A DNA stretch of 64,000 nt from Caulobacteraceae bacterium. Lineage in GTDB: Bacteria > Pseudomonadota > Alphaproteobacteria > Caulobacterales > Caulobacteraceae. A model generated the notes under the pieces. The model was not told where the DNA came from. It searched no databases and saw nothing but the letters and a program-made list of their open reading frames with translations. Shown here piece by piece: positions 2,476-61,967 of this stretch. The position numbers and the translations under genes are program-made. The stretch is taken from NCBI GenBank assembly GCA_035493215.1, contig DATJIO010000007.1, forward strand, positions 15,578-79,577, in the 5' to 3' direction. Position 1 is the stretch's first letter. Each line of letters begins with the position of its first letter.

Positions 2476-5115
<2,640 letters not shown>

Positions 5116-10370: not shown

Positions 10371-10611
10371 GGCGCTCCCCCGAAAGACACCCGACTTGGT
10401 TGTGGCGACGCCCCGGGCTCACTGTCGACCTTCTGTCATTGGCGTCAAGAAGCCGTTGACGCGGAAGCTGTGGATCGTCATACAGCCCCCTTTCCCGCGG
10501 ACCGGGTATCCTGGCCGCGCGAAATCATATGACGGGTGATGCGGACGCCGCCGTTGCAATCGCCTTCCCACTCTCGGGGAGGCCGGCCCGTGTCGATGCG
10601 AAAGAGTCTAC

Positions 10612-11229
10612 ATGTCCAAGCGCCACTCGGCGAAATACAAGATCGACCGCCGTATGGGCGAGAACATTTGGGGCCGTCCCAAATCGCCCGTCAACCAACG
10701 CTCCTACGGCCCCGGCCAGCACGGCCAGCGTCGCAAGTCCAAGGTTTCCGACTTCGGCCTGCAGCTCAAGGCCAAGCAGAAGCTGAAGGGCTACTACGGC
10801 AACCTCACCGAAAAACAGTTCCGCCGGACCTACGACGAGGCGTCGCGCCGCAAGGGCAACACCTCCGAGAACCTGATCGGCCTCTTGGAAAGCCGGCTGG
10901 ACGCGGTGGTCTACCGCTCCAAGTTCGTGCCGACCCCGTTCGCCGCGCGCCAGTTCGTCAACCACGGCCACGTGCAGGTCAACGGCAAGCGGGTCAACAT
11001 CGCCTCCTACCGGGTCAAGCCGGGCGACGTGGTCTCGGTGCGCGAGCGCTCGCGCAACATGGCCCTGGTGCTGGAAGCCATCCAGTCGCCCGAGCGTGAC
11101 ACCCCAGACTACATCGAGGTCGACACCAAGGGCCTGTCGGTGAAGTTCATCCGCGCCCCGGACCTGGCCGAAGTGCCCTATCCGGTGAAGATGGAACCCA
11201 ACCTCGTGGTCGAGTTCTACGCGTCCTAA
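10612..11229 (+). CDS. rpsD: 30S ribosomal protein S4
   Basis: 205-aa ORF beginning [26 protein letters not shown], with an S4 RNA-binding domain. Confidence 0.97.
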
Positions 11230-11256
11230 GACGCCGACGACGACGGGAATGCGAAA

Positions 11257-11286
11257 GGGCCGCGGATCGCTCCGCGGCCCTTTTTT
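11257..11286. terminator. Intrinsic terminator between convergent rpsD and grxD
   Basis: GGGCCGCGGA-TCGC-TCCGCGGCCC, a perfect 10-bp stem followed by TTTTTT. AAA precedes the stem. Confidence 0.75.
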
Positions 11287-11316
11287 CTATCCGGCGTACG
11301 CCGACGACCGGATGGG

Positions 11317-11679
11317 TCAGGCCGCCAGCACGCCCTTTTCGGTCAGGAACGGCTTCAGTTCGCCGGTCGAGAACATCTCGCGTACGATGTCGGAGCCGCC
11401 GACGAACTCGCCCTTGACGTAGAGCTGCGGGATGGTCGGCCAGTCGGAGTAGGTCTTGACGCCCTGGCGCAGGGTCTCGTCCTGCAGGATGTTCACCCCG
11501 ACGAAATCGACCCCAAGGTGGTCGAGGATCTGCACCACCACCGCGGAGAAGCCGCACTGGGGCTTGTCGGGCACGCCCTTCATGAACAGCACCACCGGGT
11601 GCTCGGCCAGGGTCTTGTCGATGAAGGCGTGGACGGCCGTTTCGGTGTCAGGGGCGGATTCGGCGGCGGCTTCGGTCAC
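11317..11679 (-). CDS. grxD: Grx4-family monothiol glutaredoxin
   Basis: CGFS active site (KPQCGFSAVV) and WPTIPQLYVKGEFVGG. The track start is a TTG at 11697. I prefer the GTG at 11679, which is preceded by GGAGG at a 5-nt spacing. Confidence 0.9.
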   Translation of the reverse strand: MTEAAAESAPDTETAVHAFIDKTLAEHPVVLFMKGVPDKPQCGFSAVVVQILDHLGVDFVGVNILQDETLRQGVKTYSDWPTIPQLYVKGEFVGGSDIVREMFSTGELKPFLTEKGVLAA

Positions 11680-11736
11680 GGCGACCTCCGTAAGCAAAAG
11701 GGTTCCGCCCGGAGCTAGGCGCTGCGGCGGCTTATA

Positions 11737-12636
11737 TCAAGCCGCGCCGGACTTCTCGTGGGTGGAAAACCGCGCCATCTCGATCTGGGCCGACAGGCCG
11801 TTGGGCAGGTCGCGCTCCACGGCGGCGGCCAGTTTCTGCAGGGCCGTGGCCTCGAACGACCGGGTCTGGACGGTGGTCAGCGACGGCTCGGTGAGCGCGA
11901 ACGCCAGGCAGGCCTCCTCGGCGGTCCAGCCGGGGGTGCGCTCCAGGAAGGTGTAGGGCCCGTCGAAGGTGGACTTGTCGCCGCCCAGCAGCCGCCTCAG
12001 CCCCAGGGGGCCGGCCGCGGGCTTGTCGGCGGCGCGCCGGTTGAACGGATGGAAGTCGGTGCCGACGACGGCCATGTCGGCCTCGACGGCGCGCTTCAGC
12101 CGGTTGCGCTCGATCCAGCCGGAATGGACGTTGAACGGGGTCTCCAGCACCTCGAAGACTCCGCTGCCGATATGGGGGTCGGCCCCTTCCGCCCCGGCGA
12201 TGCCCAACATCCGCACCCGCCCGGCCTGTTGGGCCGACTGCAGGGACGGGACCACGTGGGGCGGCAAGACCTCGCTTTCGAGGGTGTCGAAGATGGCCAC
12301 GTCCAGGCGGTCAAGGCGGGTGCTGGCCAACGCCGCCTCGATGGCGCCGGTTAGGCCGTCGGTGGTGAGGTCGCGCACGCGCTTGCCGTTGCGGTCGCGG
12401 CTCCAGCCGATCCGTAGGGCCACGAACACCATCCGCCGCTCGATCGCCGAAAGGGCTTCGCCGAGCGCGGCGCCGACCTCGGGGTCGCGCGATTGCAGCT
12501 CGAAGGTGTTGATGCCCGCTTCCAGCGCCGCATAGATCAGCTTAACCCGCTCCTCGGGCCGCATCGGCCGGTCGGTGAGCGCCAAGGACAGGGCGGAGAC
12601 GGCGCCGCCGGAGCGCGCGAAGGGGCGGTATCTCAT
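11737..12636 (-). CDS. Aldo/keto reductase family oxidoreductase
   Basis: Track ORF 11737..12882 is a read-through into bolA. I trimmed it to ATG 12636 (MRYRPFARSGGAVSALSLAL...). It has an AKR-like TIM-barrel pattern, and its start overlaps the bolA stop (ATGA). Confidence 0.7.
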   Translation of the reverse strand: MRYRPFARSGGAVSALSLALTDRPMRPEERVKLIYAALEAGINTFELQSRDPEVGAALGEALSAIERRMVFVALRIGWSRDRNGKRVRDLTTDGLTGAIEAALASTRLDRLDVAIFDTLESEVLPPHVVPSLQSAQQAGRVRMLGIAGAEGADPHIGSGVFEVLETPFNVHSGWIERNRLKRAVEADMAVVGTDFHPFNRRAADKPAAGPLGLRRLLGGDKSTFDGPYTFLERTPGWTAEEACLAFALTEPSLTTVQTRSFEATALQKLAAAVERDLPNGLSAQIEMARFSTHEKSGAA

Positions 12637-12875
12637 GGTCCATCCGTGGATGCGGCGGTCTCGAGGGCCAGGGCGTGCAGCTCGCCGCCTACCCGCCCCT
12701 TCAGGGCGGCGTAGACCAGCTGATGCTGGCGCACCCGCGTCAGGCCGCGGAAGGCGGCGGCCGTGATCTTCGCCTTGTAGTGGTCGCCGTCGCCGGCCAG
12801 GTCGTCGATGACGATCTCCGCGTCGGGGAAGGCTTCCCGCAGCGTAGATTCGAGGTCTTCGGCGGACATCGGCAT
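12633..12875 (-). CDS. bolA: BolA-family protein
   Basis: 80-aa ORF with GDGDHYKAKITAAAFRGLTRVRQHQLVYAAL, the BolA signature. Confidence 0.85.
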   Translation of the reverse strand: MPMSAEDLESTLREAFPDAEIVIDDLAGDGDHYKAKITAAAFRGLTRVRQHQLVYAALKGRVGGELHALALETAASTDGP

Positions 12876-12928
12876 GAAGCACTCATGCAGCCGGTTCGGT
12901 TAAAAACCGGCGAATATTTGGGGCCTAT

Positions 12929-14212
12929 TTAAGGGGCGGCCCCGTCGGCTCTGAGGGTGATCGGCCGGACGTCGCCGATCAGGAAAATCCAGGCGAAGGC
13001 GCCCACCGCCGCCACGGCGCCGACGAAGGCCAGCGCCCCGACGAAGGAGCCGGTGGCCTGGACGATGAATCCGATCGCCAGCGGGGTGACGATGCCCGAC
13101 AGGTTCGCCGCGGCGCTGAAAAGGCCGCCGACCAGTCCCAGGGTCCCCTTGGGGGCCATCTCCGACAGCACCGCCCAGCCCGAGGACGACATGGCCTGGG
13201 CGAAGAAGGCGACCGACAGGATGGCCACCACGGCGGCGGTCGACTGCACGTAGTTGGCCAGGACGATGGTGGACGCCACCAGCAGGCCCATGATCACCGG
13301 CAGCTTGCGCGCCAGGTTCAGCGAGGCGCCGCGCCGCAGCAGGGTGTCCGACAGCCACCCGGCGAACAGGATGCCGAAGAAGCCGGCCAGGTAGGGCAGG
13401 GAGGCCAGCACGCCCGTCTTGATCCAGCCCATGTGCCGCTCCGTGGCCAGGTAGGTCGGGAACCAGGTGAGGAAGAAGACGAAGGTCGAGTAGACCGAGA
13501 ATTGGCCCAGGCACAGGCCCATGACCTGGCGGTTCGTCGCCAGCTCGCGCAACAGGGACCAGCTGAACGGCCGCGTCTCGGCCGCCGTGCGCCCGCCGCC
13601 GTCGGCGATGAACGCCAGCTCGGCCTTCGAGGCGCGGCTGGCTTCGGGGTCGCGATAGCCGAGCCGCCACACCGCGGTGAAGGCCAGGCCCAGGCCGCCC
13701 GAGAGGAAGAACAGGCTGCGCCAGCCGTGCTGGGCGACGATCCAGAACAGCAGCGGGCTCATGAAGCCCAGGGCGACGTACTCGGCGGCCGTGTAGACGC
13801 CGATGGCCATGCCCCGTTCGCGCCGGGGAAACCAGGCGGCGACGATGTTGCTGTTGGCCGGAAAACAGGGGGCCTCGAACAAGCCCAACCCCAGGCGCAG
13901 CCCGATCAGCGAATAGAGGCCGCGGGTGAAGGCGTGCAGCAGGGTCGCGGCCGACCAGCCGGCGATGGCGACCAGATAGATCGTGCGCGCGCCGAAGCGG
14001 TCCAGCAGCACCCCCGCCGGCACCTGGGCGGCGAAATAGCTCCAGGAGAAGGCGGAGAACACCACCCCCATCAGGGCCGGACTGAGGTGGAACTCGCCCT
14101 GGATGCCCGGCGTCGCCACCCCCAGGATCGCCCGGTCGAGATAGTTGATCGCCACTGCGCCGCTGATCAGCGCCAGCATCACGAACCGGGTCCGCGTCCT
14201 GGCGGCGGCCAT
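12929..14212 (-). CDS. MFS transporter (anion:cation symporter / hexuronate-like)
   Basis: The C-terminal 427 aa of track ORF 12929..15418, starting at ATG 14212 (MAAARTRTRFVMLALISGAVAINYLDRAIL...). It has about 12 hydrophobic segments and LLDRFGAR. Confidence 0.85.
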   Translation of the reverse strand: MAAARTRTRFVMLALISGAVAINYLDRAILGVATPGIQGEFHLSPALMGVVFSAFSWSYFAAQVPAGVLLDRFGARTIYLVAIAGWSAATLLHAFTRGLYSLIGLRLGLGLFEAPCFPANSNIVAAWFPRRERGMAIGVYTAAEYVALGFMSPLLFWIVAQHGWRSLFFLSGGLGLAFTAVWRLGYRDPEASRASKAELAFIADGGGRTAAETRPFSWSLLRELATNRQVMGLCLGQFSVYSTFVFFLTWFPTYLATERHMGWIKTGVLASLPYLAGFFGILFAGWLSDTLLRRGASLNLARKLPVIMGLLVASTIVLANYVQSTAAVVAILSVAFFAQAMSSSGWAVLSEMAPKGTLGLVGGLFSAAANLSGIVTPLAIGFIVQATGSFVGALAFVGAVAAVGAFAWIFLIGDVRPITLRADGAAP

Positions 14213-14214
14213 GC

Positions 14215-16425
<2,211 letters not shown>

Positions 16426-42519: not shown

Positions 42520-43254
42520 TCACCGGCGCCACGGAATCCGGTGGGACAGACGGATCGCGCCCTGGCCCATCTCGCAGCGATAGGCCAGCACCTCCACCCC
42601 TGCGCCTGCCGCATGGTCCAGGGCGGCGGCGAACACCGGATCGAGGTCGTGGCAGGCGGAGAAGGCGTCGCAATCCTCCCGCTGGACCGTGAACAGCACC
42701 ACCGCCCGGTCGCCGGCGGCGACCACCGTCTCCAGCTCGCGCAGGTGCTTGGCCGAGCGCGCCGCCACGCAGTCGGGGAACTCCGCCAGCGTCCCGCCGC
42801 GGCGCAGGTGGCAGTTCTTGATCTCCAGCCAGCAGGCCGGGCGGCCCTCGCCGGTCAGCAGGAAGTCGACACGGCTGTTGGTCCCGTACTTCACCTCGGC
42901 GCGCACGGTCTCGTAGCCGGCCAGCTCGGAGATCAGCCCTTCGCGCAGGGCCTCGGCGGCCAAGCGGTTCGGATGCATGGTGTTCAAGCCGACGGTTACG
43001 AACTCGCCGGAAATCTCGTTCGGAACGTCCACCAGTTCCCATGTGAAGGGCAGCTTCCGCTTCGGGCTGGGGTCGTGGGAGAGCCAGCACGTCAGGCCCG
43101 GCGTGTTCAGGCCGATCATCGCTCCGGGGTTCGGGCAATGGGCGGTGATGACTGACCCGTCCTCCAACTCGATGTCGGCGAGGAACCGCTTGTAGCGTTG
43201 GATCAGTCGGCCTCGGACGAGCGGAGTGGCGAACTGCATGGTAGCAGACATCAC
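42520..43254 (-). CDS. sfsA: Sugar fermentation stimulation protein SfsA (chimeric: native 3' part plus island-borne 5' part)
   Basis: 244-aa ORF with ...[30 protein letters not shown]... and an SfsA C-terminal nuclease-like domain. The likely true start is the ATG at 43239 (MQFATPL). Sequence 5' of about 42984 belongs to the island (see the mobile element). Confidence 0.88.
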
Positions 43255-43307
43255 GACCGGAGATGGCTCGGCAATGGCAGATTGGCGGCGTCCCCAGCGG
43301 GCGGGGC

Positions 43308-43607
43308 CTAATTGCCCGGTCGAGTCAGGAGCAATTCTAAGGCGTCCATATCGCGGAGCGGCTTCTCCGCGAACTCTCGTGGCGTCAGGATCGTGAGATC
43401 AAAGGCGACGCCGAGTCTCTCTCCAAGGTTGACGAAGGACCTTCGGATTTCATGTCCTTTCGCCAGTAGATCGGCGCGAGCGCAATCTACGACAATCACC
43501 AAGTCGATGTCCCGATAGCTCGCCTCCCCACGGAAGTAAGACCCCATACCGTAGAGGGCGGCGATTCCCTCAAGGCCCTCGGCCTCGCGTAGAATTTCCG
43601 TCCGCAT
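43308..43607 (-). CDS. Minimal nucleotidyltransferase (MNT, Pol-beta superfamily)
   Basis: 99 aa from ATG 43607. It has the GS-x9-DxD core ([22 protein letters not shown]) and a third acidic residue in AFDLTIL. The track ORF extends to 43742, but upstream of M46 it has no NTase-like sequence. Confidence 0.7.
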
Positions 43608-43980
43608 CGAGCTTGTCGTAATTCCAAAAATCGTCGGTGAACAGCGCGGGTATGATCTCGGCTCCGCGAAAAATCCCGATATGCCGATATTTGCAGAACT
43701 CAAGAGCTTCTTCGGTATATCCGTTCCAATTTCCCCCGACATATATGACGTTTACGCTCGGGAACGCGTCCAAGACCTTCATAACGAATTCAACGCCTGC
43801 CGAATATTCGTCCATACACGCGATAGTGAGGTGGTCGCCTTGCCTCGTGCGGTCCGCCTCAAAAATGAAGTCGTCGTGCCGTCGCACGCCGGTCAAGTTC
43901 CGGTGGCTTCCCAGAACCGATATGAGGTGACTGATCCGCGAGAAGGCGATCCCCCAAGAGTTGCTGCCGTTATCGTTCAC
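43570..43980 (-). CDS. Orphan 136-aa protein (alternating alpha/beta pattern, no recognised family)
   Basis: The GTG start at 43980 overlaps the HNH gene's TGA stop (GTGA). The 3' end overlaps the MNT start by 38 nt. A notable motif is VNVIYVGGNWNGYTEEALEF. Confidence 0.5.
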   Translation of the reverse strand: MNDNGSNSWGIAFSRISHLISVLGSHRNLTGVRRHDDFIFEADRTRQGDHLTIACMDEYSAGVEFVMKVLDAFPSVNVIYVGGNWNGYTEEALEFCKYRHIGIFRGAEIIPALFTDDFWNYDKLDADGNSTRGRGP

Positions 43981-44645
43981 TGGAACGCCTTCTCGAACTC
44001 GGCGGGAAACAAGGGGTAGCGATCTAAGCGGCTGTGAACGTGCCGCTCATAGGCGTCAGCGTGTGCCACGAACTTCCCATATGCTTCCACCTGTTCAGCG
44101 GTCAGAAGCCGCTGATTCGCCTGCACGATGTTCATGATCCTGCGGTTATTGGGAACGATACGATCTGCTCGCCGGAGTTCCCAAAGGCCGTGCAGATTTG
44201 ACCCCGGATCGCTCATGGCGGCCTCGGATTTCGGGCCATAGTTGGCCCATATGCTGCGGTTCTCGGTTAGTAGGAAGCGGACTCGGCCTGCGAGTTCCTC
44301 GTTCGATGAAAACAGTTCTTCTGACCCCAAATTTCGTGTGCGGTCTTCGTGTAGGAGTTTCCAGTGTCGGAGTTCCTCGGCGGGAAACGTGCCCGCTGGG
44401 GCCTTGTCCACATCCCGATGGCAGGTCGGGCATAGCAGGATGAGGTTGTCATAGCTGTCGCTTCCGCCGCCCGTGACGCCGCGCGGTCCTCCTTCAGCTT
44501 TGGCAATGACGTGTGCCATCTCGCCCACGATGTAGTGCTTCCCGCCTTCGATTAGCCGGGTGAGATCGGTGCCGCAGCCGGGGCGGGAACACGTGCCAGC
44601 CGCCCGACCCCAGAGGAGTTTTATGTCTGGGTCGGGGATAGCCAC
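43977..44645 (-). CDS. HNH endonuclease with about 130-aa C-terminal helical domain of unknown function
   Basis: 222-aa ORF with a GTG start preceded by GAGG at a 6-nt spacing. The zinc/HNH pattern is C19-x4-C24 ... EMAH45 ... YDN67LILLC72PTC75H76. Confidence 0.85.
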   Translation of the reverse strand: MAIPDPDIKLLWGRAAGTCSRPGCGTDLTRLIEGGKHYIVGEMAHVIAKAEGGPRGVTGGGSDSYDNLILLCPTCHRDVDKAPAGTFPAEELRHWKLLHEDRTRNLGSEELFSSNEELAGRVRFLLTENRSIWANYGPKSEAAMSDPGSNLHGLWELRRADRIVPNNRRIMNIVQANQRLLTAEQVEAYGKFVAHADAYERHVHSRLDRYPLFPAEFEKAFQ

Positions 44646-44841
44646 AATTCGCCTCGAACGTCTTCTGCCTGTGCTCGGACGGGCTTTAGCAGCATTTCCC
44701 GGTCATCATCTTCTCTCGGGATTGTCACGGAGTATCACCGATCATGGCCCCGCCAATGCGGGGTCGGAACCCGCCGGGGCGTATGACTGTCTGATGTGCT
44801 CGTTTCCCAATGCTGGTGCAGCGGAGAGGGAGGCGGTCGCA

Positions 44842-45372
44842 TCACCCCTCGGTCGGGAAGAAATCTTCCAGAAAGAGCATCGTCTCAGGGGCGGACGACG
44901 CATGTTGTTCCTTGGCGATGTAGAAGGCGAACCCGGCAGGATTGGCCGCGTCCGTTGTCCACTGCGAGCCACCAGCCCACACGTCAGACCACAAGCCGCG
45001 CTGGGTTGGCGGGAACATCTCACTGAACCGTTCGAGCCGCGCATGCTGAACCCGCAGCAAGCCGTGCGCGTGAAGGTTGGACTTCAGGTGCTCGAACATG
45101 AACACGCCCGTCGTGCGGTCATTTCGCCGCCGCGTGAACCGCCTTCCGAGCAGCTTGCGGTCCACCTTGCCGAAGCACTCGCCGATGGCCGACCGCGCGT
45201 TCGCCAGTGAGACCGGCCTGTTGAAGTTCAGCGTCATGGCGATGTTCAGCGTGGGATCGCTGAGCCAACGGCTGTAGGCTGAGCGGCGCGTCATGTTGAA
45301 GCGCGCCTTGAAATCGTCGTTCGGGAGCATGTTCTTTCCAAGTTGTTGGGTTTCTTGAGTGTAGTGAAGCAT
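44842..45372 (-). CDS. HUH-motif protein (rolling-circle Rep / Inovirus Gp2 (YagK/YfjJ)-like candidate)
   Basis: 176-aa ORF. Three motifs occur in canonical order: MTLNF (motif 1-like), NLHAHGLL (HUH) and FAFYIAKEQ (YxxK). The RBS is weak, so the start is uncertain. Confidence 0.45.
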   Translation of the reverse strand: MLHYTQETQQLGKNMLPNDDFKARFNMTRRSAYSRWLSDPTLNIAMTLNFNRPVSLANARSAIGECFGKVDRKLLGRRFTRRRNDRTTGVFMFEHLKSNLHAHGLLRVQHARLERFSEMFPPTQRGLWSDVWAGGSQWTTDAANPAGFAFYIAKEQHASSAPETMLFLEDFFPTEG

Positions 45373-45477
45373 GGTTAACCTATTTAGTCTAAGGGTTCAC
45401 GTTAGCGGTATGAATTCCTACCGGTCAAAATCATTCTGAGACGGTCTGGATAAATACCATCAGCAACGGAGGTAAGA

Positions 45478-45714
45478 ATGGTTGTCGGTGAGATTTACAA
45501 TGAGATGTTCGAGCGTGACCTGACGGACTCGATGCGAAGTTGGAGTGAGCAGTGGGCTGGGCGTTCTCACAACTTCGCCACGACTCACTGGGCGAAACCG
45601 CTACCTGCGGAGACCGCGATCCATCTGCGGAAGCGGCTGATCGCGGAAGGCCACCCGGACTTGGCGGCCAAGGTTCTGCTGGCCCTACTGGACGAGGTGC
45701 TTTATGCCGCATGA
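45478..45714 (+). CDS. Small hypothetical protein (78 aa)
   Basis: ATG is preceded by GGAGG at a 5-nt spacing. It is the first gene of the plus-strand cargo module. Confidence 0.5.
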   Translation: MVVGEIYNEMFERDLTDSMRSWSEQWAGRSHNFATTHWAKPLPAETAIHLRKRLIAEGHPDLAAKVLLALLDEVLYAA

Positions 45715-45919
45715 ACACGATCCGGCGCCAACGCCATTCAGCACTGAAGACTTGATGCTGAAAGGTCGGAACGGCGCGTTTCCAGACGGCTATCTGAATG
45801 CCTATCTGGCTCACCTGCGTCGTTCGCACGCCGCCGCCCAAGCGGAGATCGACCGCCTATTCGCCGAGGCGGCTGACGATCCCGCCGAGTTGGCGCGGCT
45901 CAGTGATCTCCGGTTCTGA
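45704..45919 (+). CDS. Small hypothetical protein (71 aa)
   Basis: The ATG overlaps the previous gene's end by 11 nt and is preceded by GAGG. The C-terminal half is helical. Confidence 0.4.
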   Translation: MPHEHDPAPTPFSTEDLMLKGRNGAFPDGYLNAYLAHLRRSHAAAQAEIDRLFAEAADDPAELARLSDLRF

Positions 45920-45930
45920 CGTGCGATCCG

Positions 45931-46200
45931 ATGCGCTACCGGGAGATCGTTGAGACGGGCGCCGGCGCCCAGATATGGAAGCAGACCGAGCGGGCTATGG
46001 ATGCCCTTCGGACGCTGCGCTCCAAACAGGCGAAGGTATCGGATGCGCGCGCTTCCGCTCGCGCACTGCCTACTGGTCAGGAACGGGCACGCCGTCTCCA
46101 CGCTGCGGATCGGAATGATGCCGATGCTCGCCGAGTCTACGGCGATGCGGTGAGCCGGGCGAATGATCGGGCGCGCGAAGCGATGGCGAAGCGTCGCTGA
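45931..46200 (+). CDS. Small basic helical hypothetical protein (89 aa)
   Basis: The ORF starts 12 nt after the previous stop. There is no clear RBS. Confidence 0.35.
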   Translation: MRYREIVETGAGAQIWKQTERAMDALRTLRSKQAKVSDARASARALPTGQERARRLHAADRNDADARRVYGDAVSRANDRAREAMAKRR

Positions 46201-46241
46201 CTTGTCGCCGCAACCGCGAGCTTAGGCTAAACGCGGTATCC

Positions 46242-47945
46242 GTGTTGGGGCATCGCAGAATGACCATGATTTCCGATCCTGCGATTTGCGGCAGCGGAGT
46301 GATAACCGGCGCCTTTCCAAGCCCGGACGGCAACGTGCTCGCAATAGCGAGCCGGTTTTCGCTTCTCGTAAATCCGCGTTCGAGGGCCTGCTACGCGGGC
46401 CAAACGCTCCACTACAGGCTTGCCCTCTATCGGCGCGGCGAGATCGTGCCTTTCGCCGCTTTTGATCGGCTCCGGTTCCACATCAACGACGTGGCCTTTC
46501 ACCCAACTGAACCGGTCGTTGCGATTGCGACCGGCAGCTACGACGGGGGGTATTGCTTCGAGGGCGATCTCGTTCTGTGGAACTGGATTGACGACCTGCA
46601 CGGTCGGCCAGTCGCGCAGATTCCCGAGGTGGTGCGCTGTCGCTTTGACGACTCAGGCGGGGCCGTCGAGTCCCTTGTCCGACCCTGGGACGAGGAATGG
46701 GAAGGGCTACCGGAGCCTCGTGAGGATACGGCGTTCGATAGCCTGTTCCCGGTTCGGATTCCCTACACAGGAGCAGCCTTCGCCGGAACGGATTCCGTCG
46801 AGATCGAGCTAACGCCGTGCAGCCGGCTCGAACGTGCTCAAGCAGTTGCCCATGGGTTCGCCGAGATCGCCACCGCCAACGCTGACGAGGCGGAATCGCG
46901 CGCATTGTCGTGGCTGAGCCTCCCTCATCAAAAGTTGAGGCACGCCATTCGGGACGTGGGCTGGCTGGACGACCAACATCTCGCCGTCGTCCATGACGGA
47001 TGCCTACTGGAAATCTTCGACATGACGGGAGATCGGACGGGCGCGTTCTACGGCGAGGGCTACGGCGCGGAGATTCTAAAATCGACTCCCCCGTGCGTTC
47101 ACATCGTTGAGCCGCCTTCGCTGGCAGACCGCTATTCGCCGCAGCGAGGTGTCGCCAAACTGTGCGCGATCTCCAATGGGGAGCTAACGGAGGTCGGCTC
47201 ATTTGAGGGGGAGTATACCTTCTCATCTTCCCCGAGCGGCCTTGTCCTTGGGCGGTTGAACCGCATCCCGACTGGCAACTCGACCAAGGATGTGTTGCTC
47301 GACTTGGTCGAAAGCGGAGAGGCCAAGAAGATTGATCTTGGGCACTACGATTGCTTCAACCACTACATCGGGATCGACGGGGCGCCCTACCTCTTCTTCC
47401 TCCAAGGAACTCCGCCATCCTCGCACAAGGACAAGCGGTTGTGCGTGGTTCAGCCGACCGGCGACGTGCGGACGCTGTGGCCGCTGTTGGCCGCTGACGG
47501 GACGAATGCAAGCCATGCCATGGAGTGCTGCGGCTGCTTTGTGGGCGACGGAGCGGGCGAGGGCGTTGTCGTCAGCGGCAGGCACTATGAGCCCAACCCT
47601 TCAAGGCCAGTCGCAGCGTTCATCTATCGCAAGGCGTTGGGCGCGGATCGGGAGTTATGGCGCCACGAGACCGATGCGTGCGCGAGTGCCGTCGCGTTTG
47701 TGGCCGACGAAGGATTGATCGCGGCGGCGTTCCTTGATGGAACGCTCATGCTGTTGCGCGCCTCTGACGGCCACATCTTGTTCGCGGGCAAGGCCCGGAT
47801 TGATGGTGTCCGCACGATCATCTTCTGCATGGATGCCAGCGGGGATCGTCTCGCGCTCGGCACGGTCGATGGCCGGATCGCAGTCGTCAGTGTGAAGGAC
47901 TTGCTGAACGATCCCCCACACGCGGGATGGTTCGAGCTTCGTTAG
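46242..47945 (+). CDS. WD40-like beta-propeller repeat protein (about 560 aa)
   Basis: WD-type blades sit at both ends: DVAFHPTEPVVAIATGSYDG...GDLVLWNW at the N-terminus, and AVAFVADEGLIAAAFLDGTLMLLRASDG and LALGTVDGRIAVVSVKDL at the C-terminus. The track start is a GTG at 46242; alternative ATGs lie at 46260 and 46266. Confidence 0.65.
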   Translation: MLGHRRMTMISDPAICGSGVITGAFPSPDGNVLAIASRFSLLVNPRSRACYAGQTLHYRLALYRRGEIVPFAAFDRLRFHINDVAFHPTEPVVAIATGSYDGGYCFEGDLVLWNWIDDLHGRPVAQIPEVVRCRFDDSGGAVESLVRPWDEEWEGLPEPREDTAFDSLFPVRIPYTGAAFAGTDSVEIELTPCSRLERAQAVAHGFAEIATANADEAESRALSWLSLPHQKLRHAIRDVGWLDDQHLAVVHDGCLLEIFDMTGDRTGAFYGEGYGAEILKSTPPCVHIVEPPSLADRYSPQRGVAKLCAISNGELTEVGSFEGEYTFSSSPSGLVLGRLNRIPTGNSTKDVLLDLVESGEAKKIDLGHYDCFNHYIGIDGAPYLFFLQGTPPSSHKDKRLCVVQPTGDVRTLWPLLAADGTNASHAMECCGCFVGDGAGEGVVVSGRHYEPNPSRPVAAFIYRKALGADRELWRHETDACASAVAFVADEGLIAAAFLDGTLMLLRASDGHILFAGKARIDGVRTIIFCMDASGDRLALGTVDGRIAVVSVKDLLNDPPHAGWFELR

Positions 47946-47970
47946 GCGACGGTATCACAGGCCATGGCCT

Positions 47971-48035
47971 TACGAGACCTTCGCACTGTGTCTCATTGAG
48001 GTGGATGCTTGACTTTTGAGACAATTAGTCTCACA
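47971..48035. promoter_or_regulatory. res-like cluster of GAGAC/GTCTC half-sites upstream of the resolvase gene
   Basis: The half-sites are CGAGACC (47973-47979), TGTCTCA (47989-47995), and TGAGACA (48017-48023) with AGTCTCA (48027-48033). The last two form the inverted repeat TGAGAC-AATTA-GTCTCA. The half-site resembles the Tn3/gamma-delta resolvase TGTCYNNTA consensus as I recall it. Confidence 0.35.
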
Positions 48036-48043
48036 AGGTCCCT

Positions 48044-48622
48044 ATGTCCAGTGAGAATATCAAAGCCGGTGCGGTCGTCGGATACGCCCGCACCTCGACC
48101 GGCGACCAAGATGCGGGTCTCGAAAGCCAGATCGCCGAACTGACGGCGGCGGGCTGCACGCGCGTCTTTTCGGAGAAGGTGTCGAGCGTCGATGCCGCGC
48201 GGCCCCAGCTTCATGCCGCGCTTCAGTTCCTGCGCGACGGCGACGAGTTCGTCTGCACCAAGCCGGATCGGCTTGCGCGCAGCACGACGGAACTGCTCCG
48301 TATCGTGGAAGACCTGACGGCGCGTGGGGTGCGCGTCCGCCTGCTGTCGATGAACATCGACACCAGCACCGCCACGGGCAAGCTGCTGCTGACGCTCATG
48401 GGCGCCGTGGCCGCGTTCGAGCGCGAGATCATGCTGGAACGCCAGCGCGCCGGGATCGCCAAGGCCAAGGCCGAAGGGAAGTTCAAGGGCCGGGCACCCA
48501 CGGCGCGCGCCAAGACCGCCGAGGTTCACCGGTTGATCTCAGCGGGCTGCAAGCCAGCGGAAATCATGAAGCTCACTAACATCAGCCGAGCGAGCTTCTA
48601 CCGGATCGCCAAGGCGGCGTGA
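48044..48622 (+). CDS. Small serine recombinase (resolvase/invertase family)
   Basis: 192-aa ORF with the catalytic-Ser context VGYARTSTGDQ, DRLARS, and a C-terminal HTH (AEIMKLTNISRASFYRI). Confidence 0.9.
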   Translation: MSSENIKAGAVVGYARTSTGDQDAGLESQIAELTAAGCTRVFSEKVSSVDAARPQLHAALQFLRDGDEFVCTKPDRLARSTTELLRIVEDLTARGVRVRLLSMNIDTSTATGKLLLTLMGAVAAFEREIMLERQRAGIAKAKAEGKFKGRAPTARAKTAEVHRLISAGCKPAEIMKLTNISRASFYRIAKAA

Positions 48623-48644
48623 TGGTGGGGCGCCGGCGCCCGTC

Positions 48645-50352
48645 CTACGCGGCCCTGAGCCGCCGGAAATAGGCTTCCATGCGGCTCCGGTTGCGGGGGC
48701 TGTCGATACCCTCAAGCATTTCGTCTGCGGTCGCGCCGGTGTTCGGATGGACTTCCCAAAGGGTCTGGCCATCGCGGTCGAAGGCGATCCGGTGAACGCC
48801 GCCCACCAGCACCATGACCGCGCTCATATCGCCCCATCCGTTGAAGCCGAACTCGACGGCCTCGACCACGCTGCGAACCGCGTCCGCCACCTTCGCCGGG
48901 CGGCGACGCGGGTCTCGTAGTCCTCGGCATATAAGGCGGTGCGGACTTCCAAGACGCGCTTGGCGTGCTCCTTAGGGCTGACCGCACCGCGAGCCACTTG
49001 CAGGGCCTTCTCATCCTTGCTGGCCTGCTCCTTGAGCGCGCGGATGGCAGCTTCGATCTCGGCCAACTCTTCCTGAAGAAGCTCGGATTCTTCCCGCGCG
49101 GCCAACGCCTTCATCAACCGCTTTGCCCCGGCTGTCTGATTTTCGATGGCGCGGTTCGTTTCGGCCAACCTGATCGCCAACGCCTGCGTCTGGTCGGGCT
49201 GCTGAAAGAACCTGTCGTCGAGCGCAAGGTGCAGCATCGCGTCGAGCGCAGCCGTCTCGAATGGCCTGTAGGGGAAGAGCTTGCGCTGTCCGCAGCCCCG
49301 GCGCCCGTAGGCGTTCAGGCATTGCAGATAGCGGGCGGGTTTCGCGGCGTTGCCGACCAATCCCATGCGTCCGCCACATGCCCGGCAGACAACGAGGCCG
49401 GTGAACAGGTTCGAGAACTGGTCGCGCTTGCGACCGCCAGTGCCCTTGCGGGCGGCGACGGCGGCGCGGGCGCGGCCACGAGATCAGCATAAACGATCCG
49501 GGGGAAGTAGCCGACGATCCGCTCGCCGGTCTTCTCGCGGTTTCGGCGGCGGCCAATCCCCGGTTCGAGGTCGCCCTCGACCGCCGAGGATTTCAGGATG
49601 TCGCCGATGTAGCTGTGCTCCCAGCCGACGCGGATGGACTTCCGATGATGGAAGGTGCGTCCCCACGGCTTCACCTTGCGGTCGTTGAGGGCCTGCATGA
49701 TGGCCCGCGCTCCCGCGCCCGCAGCGGCCAGTTCGTAAATCTGCACCACGACGGCGGCACGTTCGGTGATCGGGCGGAACTTGCGAACGCCGCCATCGTC
49801 GAAGACTTCCAGCCAGCCGGGCGCGTGGGCGGAAATCAGGTAATTGGACTCGGCAGCCTTCTTGCGGTTGCCGACCCAAGCCGATTTCACCCTGATGCTG
49901 ATCGTCTCGGAAAGTTGGTTGGCGACGATGCCCTGCATGAACAGATTCATGATGGCCTGCATCTGGGCCGGATTGGCCGAAGAAAGGGCCTTCTCGTCGT
50001 AGAATCCGCCATCCATCGACGTTGCAATGGTTAGGCCGTGGCGGGTCATTTCGCGCAGCCAATCGACCGCAGCCCAAACGTCCTGACGGCTCAGCCTGTC
50101 GAGCTTCTCGACGCAAAGGATCGAACCGGCTTCGATCTCACCGGCGCGCACGCGATTGGCGAAGTCGCCAAGCTCTCCGCTCGTGAGATTGTCGCCCTTC
50201 CACGCGCTGACTCCCGTGTCGGCGAACTCGTCGGCGACTTCCCAGCCTTGCCGTTCACAGTAGGCGAGGTTGTCGCGCTGCTGTCGTTCGAGGCTGTCGC
50301 CCTTCTCCTGCTTCGCGGAAGAGAACCGGCAGTAGATGTAGGCTTTCGTCAT
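48645..50352 (-). pseudogene. Large serine recombinase (integrase) interrupted by two frameshifts
   Basis: The gene spans three consecutive minus-strand frames. (1) 49315-50352 encodes the resolvase domain (YIYCRFSSAKQ..., DRLSRQ) and a recombinase domain. (2) A frame open from about 49483 encodes ...RKGTGGRKRDQFSNLFTGLVVCRACGGRMGLVGN...YLQCLNAYGRRGCG (zinc ribbon) and a coiled coil. (3) 48645-48890 encodes the C-terminal tail. The frame changes fall near 49450-49483 and 48880-48910, both in GCC-rich runs. Confidence 0.8.
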
Positions 50353-50482
50353 TTCGCGCCCGCTGTGACCGGGCGCATCCAACGCGCCCATATATGTCGT
50401 CTCACGGAATCCGAATCCGTCAACCAAATAGGGTGGTTAACGAGTTTGGCCCCTGTGGGTCGGGCGTGTTCGTAACAGGCGA

Positions 50483-50734
50483 CTAAAGGGTGTTGACCCC
50501 GACCAGCCCGCCGTCGACCTCGACCAGCTCCAGGGTGTGGGCGAGCTTGCGCTTCGGGTCGGCCGACTTCGACAGCCAGACGTCCAGGCCCGGCCTGTTC
50601 AGCCCCAGCATGGCGCCGGGGTTGGGCACGTGGGCGGTCACGGTCTCGCCGGACTCTTCCAGCACCACGTCGGCGAGGAACCGCTTGTAGCGCTGGATCA
50701 GGCGGCCGCGCACGAGCGGTTGCGGGAAGTCCAT
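50483..50734 (-). pseudogene. sfsA: Displaced native 5' fragment of sfsA (83 codons, then stop at the island junction)
   Basis: [43 protein letters not shown]...LVGVNTL* is about 60-65% identical to the N-terminus of the intact copy at 42520-43254. The reading frame ends 2 codons past the GGTGTT junction. Confidence 0.85.
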
Positions 50735-61861: not shown

Positions 61862-61885
61862 GTGGAAACCCTCGCCCCTCTTGCG

Positions 61886-61967
61886 TAGGCGCGGCGAGAC
61901 TCGAACTCGCATGACCGAAGTCGGGGGATTTTAAGTCCCATGTGTCTACCAGTTCCACCACGCGCCC
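61886..61967 (-). tRNA. tRNA-Leu (anticodon UAA)
   Basis: The reverse complement reads GGGCGCG-TG-GTGGAACTGGTAGACAC...GGGA-CTTAAAA-TCCC...long variable arm...GCGAG-TTCGAGT-CTCGC-CGCGCCT-A. The acceptor stem has 7 pairs (G1-U72 wobble) and a T-loop TTCGAGT. CCA is not encoded. Confidence 0.9.

Follow-up and report, generated by a model that had tools for sequence, protein, structure and literature searches.

The split sfsA gene

The window analysed here is a 64,000-nucleotide stretch of contig DATJIO010000007.1 from a Caulobacteraceae bacterium, and in it the nuclease gene sfsA, encoded on the minus strand, is interrupted by an island of 7,510 bp. At one end of the island, an island-borne 5' end (the surrogate) continues in frame into the native nuclease domain, and at the other end the displaced native 5' end remains as a stump beside the gene of a large serine recombinase (LSR). 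The comparisons below point to an element that was integrated site-specifically by this recombinase and that keeps its target gene whole. The window is probably from a metagenome-assembled genome (MAG), since P0212, a 100% match, is annotated as a Caulobacteraceae MAG. The features that define the island and its boundaries are as follows, with GC content and GC at third codon positions (GC3) where calculated.

42520-43239, minus strand: hybrid full-length sfsA, 239 aa, with the ATG start at 43239 set by alignment to relatives
42520-42978, minus strand: native sfsA 3' part, encoding the nuclease domain and continuing the reading frame of the surrogate; GC 72%, GC3 93%
42985-43239, minus strand: island-borne surrogate sfsA 5' end, 85 codons, spanning the whole OB domain; GC 63.5%, GC3 86%
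50483-50734, minus strand: displaced native sfsA 5' stump, with ATG at 50734 and 82 native codons, then Leu and TAG (50483-50485); GC 71%, GC3 98%
42979-42984, minus strand: attR core AACACC (GGTGTT on the plus strand), with predicted crossover dinucleotide AC at 42981-42980
50489-50494, minus strand: attL core AACACC, with predicted crossover dinucleotide AC at 50491-50490
42987-43011, no strand: P arm of attP, inside the last surrogate codons; inverted repeat with 50460-50484
50460-50484, no strand: P' arm of attP, between the core and the integrase gene
42980-50491, minus strand: integrated island, measuring 7,510 bp from one predicted crossover dinucleotide to the other; GC 61.7%, against 70% in the flanks
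48645-50391, minus strand: large serine recombinase pseudogene, with a conserved start at 50352; abuts the right junction

A first-pass annotation, made from the letters of the window, had described two copies of the sfsA 5' region, one fused in frame and one left as a stump, and this arrangement is borne out by the open reading frames (ORFs) and by Pfam and NCBIfam. The hybrid protein matches Pfam SfsA_N and SfsA, scores above the cutoff of the NCBIfam sfsA equivalog TIGR00230 (218.9 bits versus 126.45), and aligns end to end over residues 1-236 with E. coli SfsA (PDB 4DAP; E 1e-58). An upstream GTG at 43254 is also open for the hybrid gene (ORF 42520-43254). The native part of the stump (50495-50734) adjoins the integrase gene and retains the native upstream region, shared with a divergent cinA-like gene, and its reading frame closes at a TAG one sense codon past the shared core. 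Surrogate and stump match by tblastn (E ~1e-29), and 52 of 86 aligned N-terminal residues are identical (60%, or 66% without gap columns), in agreement with the earlier figure of ~60-65% and with its argument against a simple duplication, and the similarity ends exactly at the AACACC core. The step in composition inside sfsA, seen in both GC and GC3, coincides exactly with the same junction. Within the island, the GC content of 400-nt windows ranges from 52% to 68% around the mean of 61.7%, so that the 47-55% first reported for the cargo was too low, while the ~70% reported for the flanks was correct.

The surrogate appears from its relatives to be a conserved family module and not a one-off. 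Five element-type N-terminal sequences, comprising three fused surrogates (window, L005 and L111), the attP-form ORF of L003 and an unassigned ORF of L110, are 74-87% identical to one another and 59-74% identical to native stumps, and the integrases tied to them are only ~48-55% mutually identical. By codon comparison, the surrogate is under purifying selection: dN/dS is 0.12-0.29 among the element-type N-termini and 0.18 for a native pair. The first-pass proposal that the island repairs its target with a surrogate 5' end is upheld by the TIGR00230 score of the hybrid, but it had missed both the conservation of the surrogate as a module and the existence of a published analogue, the dusA islands (PMC4482086). 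A loop of the surrogate is 4-6 residues longer than its native counterpart, and its interpretation as an element-specific insertion was rejected; since the loop of E. coli SfsA is similarly long, the Caulobacterales native form is more likely to be the shortened one.

Attachment sites, empty sites and the integrase family

Both junctions carry GGTGTT on the plus strand, as first reported (42979-42984 and 50489-50494), and homology between the two sfsA copies ends there. When attP was rebuilt from the island-side halves of attR and attL, the product, which contains …GAGTTCGTAACCGTCGGCTTGAACACCCTTTAGTCGCCTGTTACGAAC…, was found to have arms TTCGTAAC…GTTACGAA forming a dyad in which 17 of 26 positions are complementary and whose midpoint falls between A and C in AACA|CC. 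The P and P' arms, 25 nt long and 80% complementary, also emerged from an independent repeat search as the best-ranked inverted repeat of the region. The contiguous attP of L003 has the same centre, a 17/26 dyad and perfect 13-bp arms, and the reconstructed attP of L010 (16/26; arms TACAGCCGCAGG / CCTGCGGCTGTA) has the same central dinucleotide. The attL and attR sites score only 8-9, and scores at 5,000 randomly chosen positions of the window average 7.6±2.5, with a probability of ~0.001 of reaching 16. These sites identify AACACC as the predicted centre of a serine-integrase-type attP, which bears out the earlier suggestion that so short a core reflects a serine integrase crossover. The polarity of serine integrases demands a non-palindromic crossover dinucleotide, and the predicted AC is non-palindromic. 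Diverged integrases appear at one host attB with clearly unlike attP arms (TTCGTAAC…, GGTTTCTAACTGT… and TACAGCCGCAGG…), a situation that bears on how attP and attB are discriminated.

To survey empty sites, one genome per species was scanned with the reconstructed native protein, which yielded 80 Caulobacterales loci. An uninterrupted site with a single AACACC, encoding ...GGLVG(V/I)NT(M/L)HPNRL..., was found in 79 of the 80, just as an empty site across a single GGTGTT had been predicted at first pass; the Caulobacterales attB reads …CTGGTCGGGGTCAACACCATGCATCCGAACCGC…, and most empty sites lie 50-200 bp from the same cinA-like neighbour. The one occupied locus, L010, contains a stump, a degraded (truncated) LSR, an island of ~7.7 kb and a surrogate-fused sfsA.

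The recombinase gene at the right junction encodes Resolvase (PF00239, E 7e-20) and Recombinase (PF07508) domains, and the catalytic S11 of its YCRFSS motif is invariant across 11 aligned homologues. It does not have an intact reading frame: three-frame translation reveals that the protein runs on in two further frames through the zinc ribbon, coiled coil and tail, and the gene is thus split into three frames. Once frame-corrected, the 569-aa product matches intact proteins over its full length (P0001, 93% identity; P0002, 89%), and its zinc-ribbon residues C323, C326, C345 and C354 are invariant, the homologues carrying PF13408. Comparison with the intact P0001/L001 locus (90% nucleotide identity) places two 1-nt deletions near 49477 and 48895, the first outside any homopolymer and the second shortening a GG run. 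The placement of an LSR gene against the right junction in the first-pass annotation is therefore upheld by the domain matches, but the two -1 frameshifts that make it a pseudogene had been missed. Because no consistently supported frameshift was found in 19 kb of flanking host genes, compared with homologues from the 80 related genomes, the LSR gene is read as a pseudogene, with the caveat of the probable MAG source.

The leader of this gene (50371-50423, minus strand) consists of TTGACG (50423-18), a gap of ~12 nt, GTGAGA (50405-00) and a hairpin GGGCGC-N7-GCGCCC (50389-71). It is conserved in 6/6 type-A loci aligned, and in L005 the hairpin has a compensating change, GGGAGCG…CGCTCCC. In its sequence, the leader looks like a promoter followed by a regulatory hairpin.

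All nine LSR relatives at 48-93% identity with readable context (P0001, P0002, P0003, P0004, P0005, P0007, P0010, P0012 and P0013) are located against sfsA at the same core; a search for serine integrases beside split sfsA genes had been proposed in the first-pass annotation. Their contexts are given below.

P0002 contig and L105 (LSRs P0002 and P0005): gene order cinA-like, stump, LSR
L001/L002 and L103 (LSRs P0001 and P0003): contig begins within the stump, directly upstream of the LSR
L005 (LSR P0010): complete 11-kb island with both ends present, laid out as in the window
L003 (LSR P0004): attP form with surrogate, core, perfect 13-bp arms and LSR; VapE and gp32 genes upstream
L006 and L106 (LSRs P0013 and P0007): LSR divergent from the surrogate-fused gene
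L004 (LSR P0012): in a prophage that includes tail genes; sfsA is truncated and a surrogate is absent

LSR relatives that are at most 44% identical (P0039, L087 and L088) are not at sfsA. A terminal overlap indicative of circularity was not found in the L003 contig.

Integration model and alternative explanations

The island is best explained, with a probability that we put at roughly 0.88, as an LSR-integrated element of a previously undescribed family that would keep sfsA whole with its own 5' end. Sequence comparison establishes how the attachment sites are built, that uninterrupted sites exist, that integrase and sfsA go together across the family, and that the surrogate is under purifying selection. 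The LSR would recognise sfsA at conserved codons, those for G-(V/I)-N-T-(M/L)-x-P-N. In the circular form of the element, attP would lie between the 3' end of the element-borne sfsA 5' third and the integrase gene, and attP and attB would be cut by the LSR at the central AC within AACACC and their half-sites swapped. The native promoter and the first 82 codons would thereby be left beside the integrase gene (attL), where a stop is soon reached, and the 85-codon surrogate of the element would join the native nuclease domain in frame (attR) and yield a complete hybrid SfsA. The integrase would later have lost one base at each of two places. Cleavage and strand exchange would be expected to follow the known serine integrase mechanism, and attP x attB recombination would be the predicted activity of the LSR. 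The hybrid gene would be transcribed from inside the island, and this could occur by read-through from the co-directional genes for an HNH nuclease, a 136-aa protein and a nucleotidyltransferase-like protein.

The two 5' ends might instead be tandem paralogues or a product of homologous recombination, with a recombinase nearby by coincidence. Beyond the bare presence of two copies nothing favours this explanation, and it is hardly conceivable given that the homology stops at one point, the centre of the palindromic attP, that relatives have a single intact gene, and that the same junction recurs with nine related recombinases; this recurrence likewise ties the second sfsA fragment to the recombinase, as the first-pass annotation had supposed, and not to a paralogue. 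It is also very improbable that the island was inserted by the small serine recombinase encoded within it (48044-48622) and not by the large one, even though the small gene is intact and is present at 88-90% identity in the window, L005, the P0002 contig and L061. Its product is of the resolvase/invertase type with HTH_7 as the only DNA-binding domain, the gene is missing from the L006 locus, and none was present in the 10 kb read beyond the L004 LSR. Moreover, it is nearly identical in islands at two sfsA sites and so does not track site choice, whereas the LSR lineage tracks the site and always abuts a junction.

An explanation that differs only in the present state of the element holds that it is still active and that the LSR frameshifts are assembly or consensus errors of the MAG. 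While the probable MAG source, the GG run shortened by the second deletion, the intact attL and attR and the intact close homologues of the LSR all lend it some weight, we consider it unlikely: the two 1-nt deletions are independent and within 1.7 kb, the 19 kb of flanking host genes have no consistently supported frameshift, the first deletion is outside a homopolymer, and decay is seen elsewhere in the family, where the L010 LSR is truncated and that of L111 lost. The preferred reading, in which an integrated element has since degenerated, makes this copy of the island probably immobile. Because its integrase gene carries two 1-nt deletions, it can probably no longer excise on its own and would be decaying in place.

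A more speculative addition to the integration model, which we regard as improbable, is that the surrogate is more than a neutral patch and that the OB (nucleic-acid-binding) domain of the element re-tunes the host nuclease for the benefit of the element, for example by changing nuclease binding or by blunting an activity that harms the element. If true, such a domain swap would account for the entry into, and rebuilding of, sfsA by two unrelated serine-recombinase lineages (see below).

Several observations weigh against the integration model or against parts of it. No recombination directionality factor was identified, and two exact-pattern scans of JGI metagenome contigs returned 0 matches to the attP junction or excised circle of the exact window lineage. 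A sigma-70 consensus scan, which is poorly suited to this organism and is uninformative here, found no promoter for the hybrid sfsA. The two LSR frameshifts could be MAG assembly errors, as discussed above, and the crossover dinucleotide is a prediction whose exact position is not fixed within the 6-bp identity. Finally, L001 and the window are about equally far apart in the displaced stump and in the LSR, which for that pair is compatible with either repeated insertion or old vertical inheritance.

Known systems, island genes and related loci

The closest published analogue is provided by the dusA islands, in which dusA receives a new 5' end from the island, while its original 5' end marks the boundary of the island (PMC4482086). 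As in sfsA, the insertion lies in the 5' part of a conserved housekeeping gene; the sfsA island also has the original 5' end as its outer boundary and restores a full-length product through a substitute 5' end in frame, and both systems pair one integrase clade with one gene and a mosaic cargo. However, the dusA islands encode DAI tyrosine integrases and measure 30-60 kb (Farrugia et al. 2015, PMC4482086), whereas the integrase of the sfsA island is a serine recombinase and the sfsA islands, at ~5-11 kb, are much smaller. A further difference is that the replacement in sfsA covers an entire domain of 85 codons, whose identity with its native counterpart is only 60%. The sfsA island behaves in the manner of a dusA island without belonging to that family. 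Other tyrosine-integrase elements with a substitute gene end keep the function of their target as here, but they involve different genes and much larger elements.

The LSRs of phages and integrative elements (phiC31, Bxb1, A118, TndX and CcrAB) have the same set of Resolvase, Recombinase and zinc ribbon domains, and their systems likewise have an attP dyad around a non-palindromic dinucleotide and very short attP-attB identity. Unlike the serine-recombinase elements described in the review PMC5704250, the sfsA island carries a long, separately conserved repair module. Because only a few bp are common to attP and attB, this module cannot be explained as a side effect of identity between the att sites.

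Integrative and mobilizable elements (IMEs) with site-specific serine recombinases integrate within genes and disrupt them, and gene-sparing insertion at gene ends has been described for tyrosine recombinases (PMC5704250); a serine-integrase family with a repair module kept by selection departs from this usual pattern of disruption. The island resembles an IME in being small, in encoding its own integrase, in lacking conjugation and virion genes and in having defence-like cargo and a possible HUH protein as relaxase or Rep. An IME would also have a relaxase and/or oriT of its own; the candidate relaxase here is the 176-aa protein described below, whose tentative HUH assignment is based on two invariant motifs and weak fold matches.

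The description 'small cargo or defence island, possibly mobilizable' fits the element. As the first-pass annotation had stated, no capsid, terminase or conjugation genes were found among the island ORFs by Pfam, PHROGs, NCBIfam or PADLOC. Its label of a cargo island fits, but its alternative label of a satellite is not supported, as no primase/replicase and no packaging or capsid-redirection genes of the phage satellite (PICI / P4-like) type were found in the window island; VapE or DUF5906 genes were seen only in relatives (VapE-like and DUF5906 in L003, DUF5906 in L109/L110). A phage origin is not supported by searches of IMG/VR and GenBank phages either. IMG/VR relatives of the integrase (<=38-44% identity) have no sfsA nearby, a scan of IMG/VR with the surrogate matched only ordinary complete sfsA, and the closest integrase relative among GenBank phages is no nearer than 34% identity.

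The architecture is already known, and the new features are the serine integrase that accompanies it, the sfsA target and the long, conserved and diverged repair module; the sfsA islands are in this sense a well-supported new element family and not a new mechanism. A literature search found no report of sfsA as an integration target or of its pairing with a serine recombinase, in agreement with what the first-pass annotation had supposed, the search extending to sources other than the TIGER/Islander 2020 target-gene tables; papers that name both sfsA and an integrase do not, to judge by the titles listed, present sfsA as a target. Intact homologues of the LSR could be single-copy integration tools for Caulobacter and Phenylobacterium, and the target site of such tools is present in nearly every genome examined.

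The remaining genes of the island are listed below.

48044-48622, plus strand: small serine recombinase (resolvase/invertase type) of 192 aa, with 88-90% identity to its counterparts in other sfsA islands
46242-47945, plus strand: cargo protein, 567 aa; weak, sub-threshold WD40/beta-propeller matches
45931-46200, plus strand: small backbone ORF, 89 aa; 61% identical in the L005 island
45478-45714, plus strand: small backbone ORF, 78 aa; 62% identical in the L005 island
44842-45372, minus strand: backbone protein of 176 aa, common to L005; HxH and YxxK motifs invariant
43977-44645, minus strand: cargo HNH nuclease, with an N-terminal domain like PADLOC PDC-M68A and the HNH domain of CBASS effectors
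43570-43980, minus strand: cargo ORF, 136 aa; no family match
43308-43607, minus strand: cargo small nucleotidyltransferase-like protein (weak Pfam match), directly upstream of the surrogate sfsA and co-directional with it

The backbone common to the window and L005 comprises the small resolvase/invertase (90% identical), the 176-aa protein and the two small ORFs. The cargo of relatives includes a reverse transcriptase and cytosine methylases, in one case together with Vsr and in another next to an unannotated ORF of 355 aa. The small recombinase remains 88-90% identical across islands whose LSRs are only 43-48% identical and which occupy two different sfsA sites; it could serve in multimer resolution or segment inversion, or could be a separately moving module.

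The 176-aa protein belongs to a family of ~42 clusters, all labelled hypothetical and apparently confined to Caulobacter-type samples. Pfam, PHROG and NCBIfam gave no match to it, and a sequence search of the PDB was empty; its AlphaFold (AF2) model has a pLDDT of 83, and the best PDB fold matches of this model are weak ones to (viral) Rep nuclease domains (E 0.03-0.3, TM 0.25-0.40). From its motifs and these fold matches, the protein is a possible Rep or relaxase of the HUH type. The genes for the 176-aa and 78-aa proteins, a divergent pair, lie at 44842-45714 in the window and at 17189-18043 in L005, in opposite orientation relative to the integrase, and this flip may be an inversion. A perfect 17-nt, GC-rich and largely palindromic repeat, GACGGGCGCCGGCGCCC, occurs at 45954-45970 and 48628-48644 and flanks the 567-aa gene and the small recombinase; the copy at 48628-48644, between the two convergent recombinase genes, may be a terminator. 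Elsewhere in the window, the sole Rfam/ARAGORN match is a tRNA-Leu (anticodon taa) at 61885-61967 on the minus strand, which is unrelated to the island.

Two related loci illustrate further states of sfsA. In L110 (10001-11997, on a 468-kb contig), a surrogate-type SfsA_N ORF that is 77% identical to the window surrogate is followed after 6 bp by an integrase of 49% identity, and the SfsA_N-LSR junction has no dyad across the core (8/26). This locus could be an attL in a host with a long-loop native sfsA, and could hence point to the lineage from which the surrogate came. In L111 (2692-4241), a native stump is followed by ~590 bp and a surrogate-fused sfsA (with a frameshift), and neither recombinase nor cargo is present. 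It represents a deletion remnant in which this decay has gone further, and because it keeps the surrogate-fused gene without the element, the foreign 5' third can evidently outlive the element. Such remnants show a route by which a host gene permanently gains a foreign 5' third.

A second kind of serine-recombinase island was observed inside sfsA in L061 (about 10,440-15,210) and L070 (about 10,440-13,340). These islands enter at the WLE(I/V)|KN catalytic motif and supply a surrogate 3' end (…CWLEI-NNVQPFYNARLKPDHKV-WLEVKNCHL…), with the displaced native 3' fragment adjoining a truncated recombinase of 198 aa; the cargo of L061 consists of a C5 methylase and a 355-aa protein. As this second lineage uses another motif, sfsA has been entered at two sites and rebuilt by both kinds of element. 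Dozens of short ORFs with only SfsA_N (64-115 aa) were also present on long contigs from many samples in the match list, and split sfsA genes may for that reason be much commoner than the handful looked at here.

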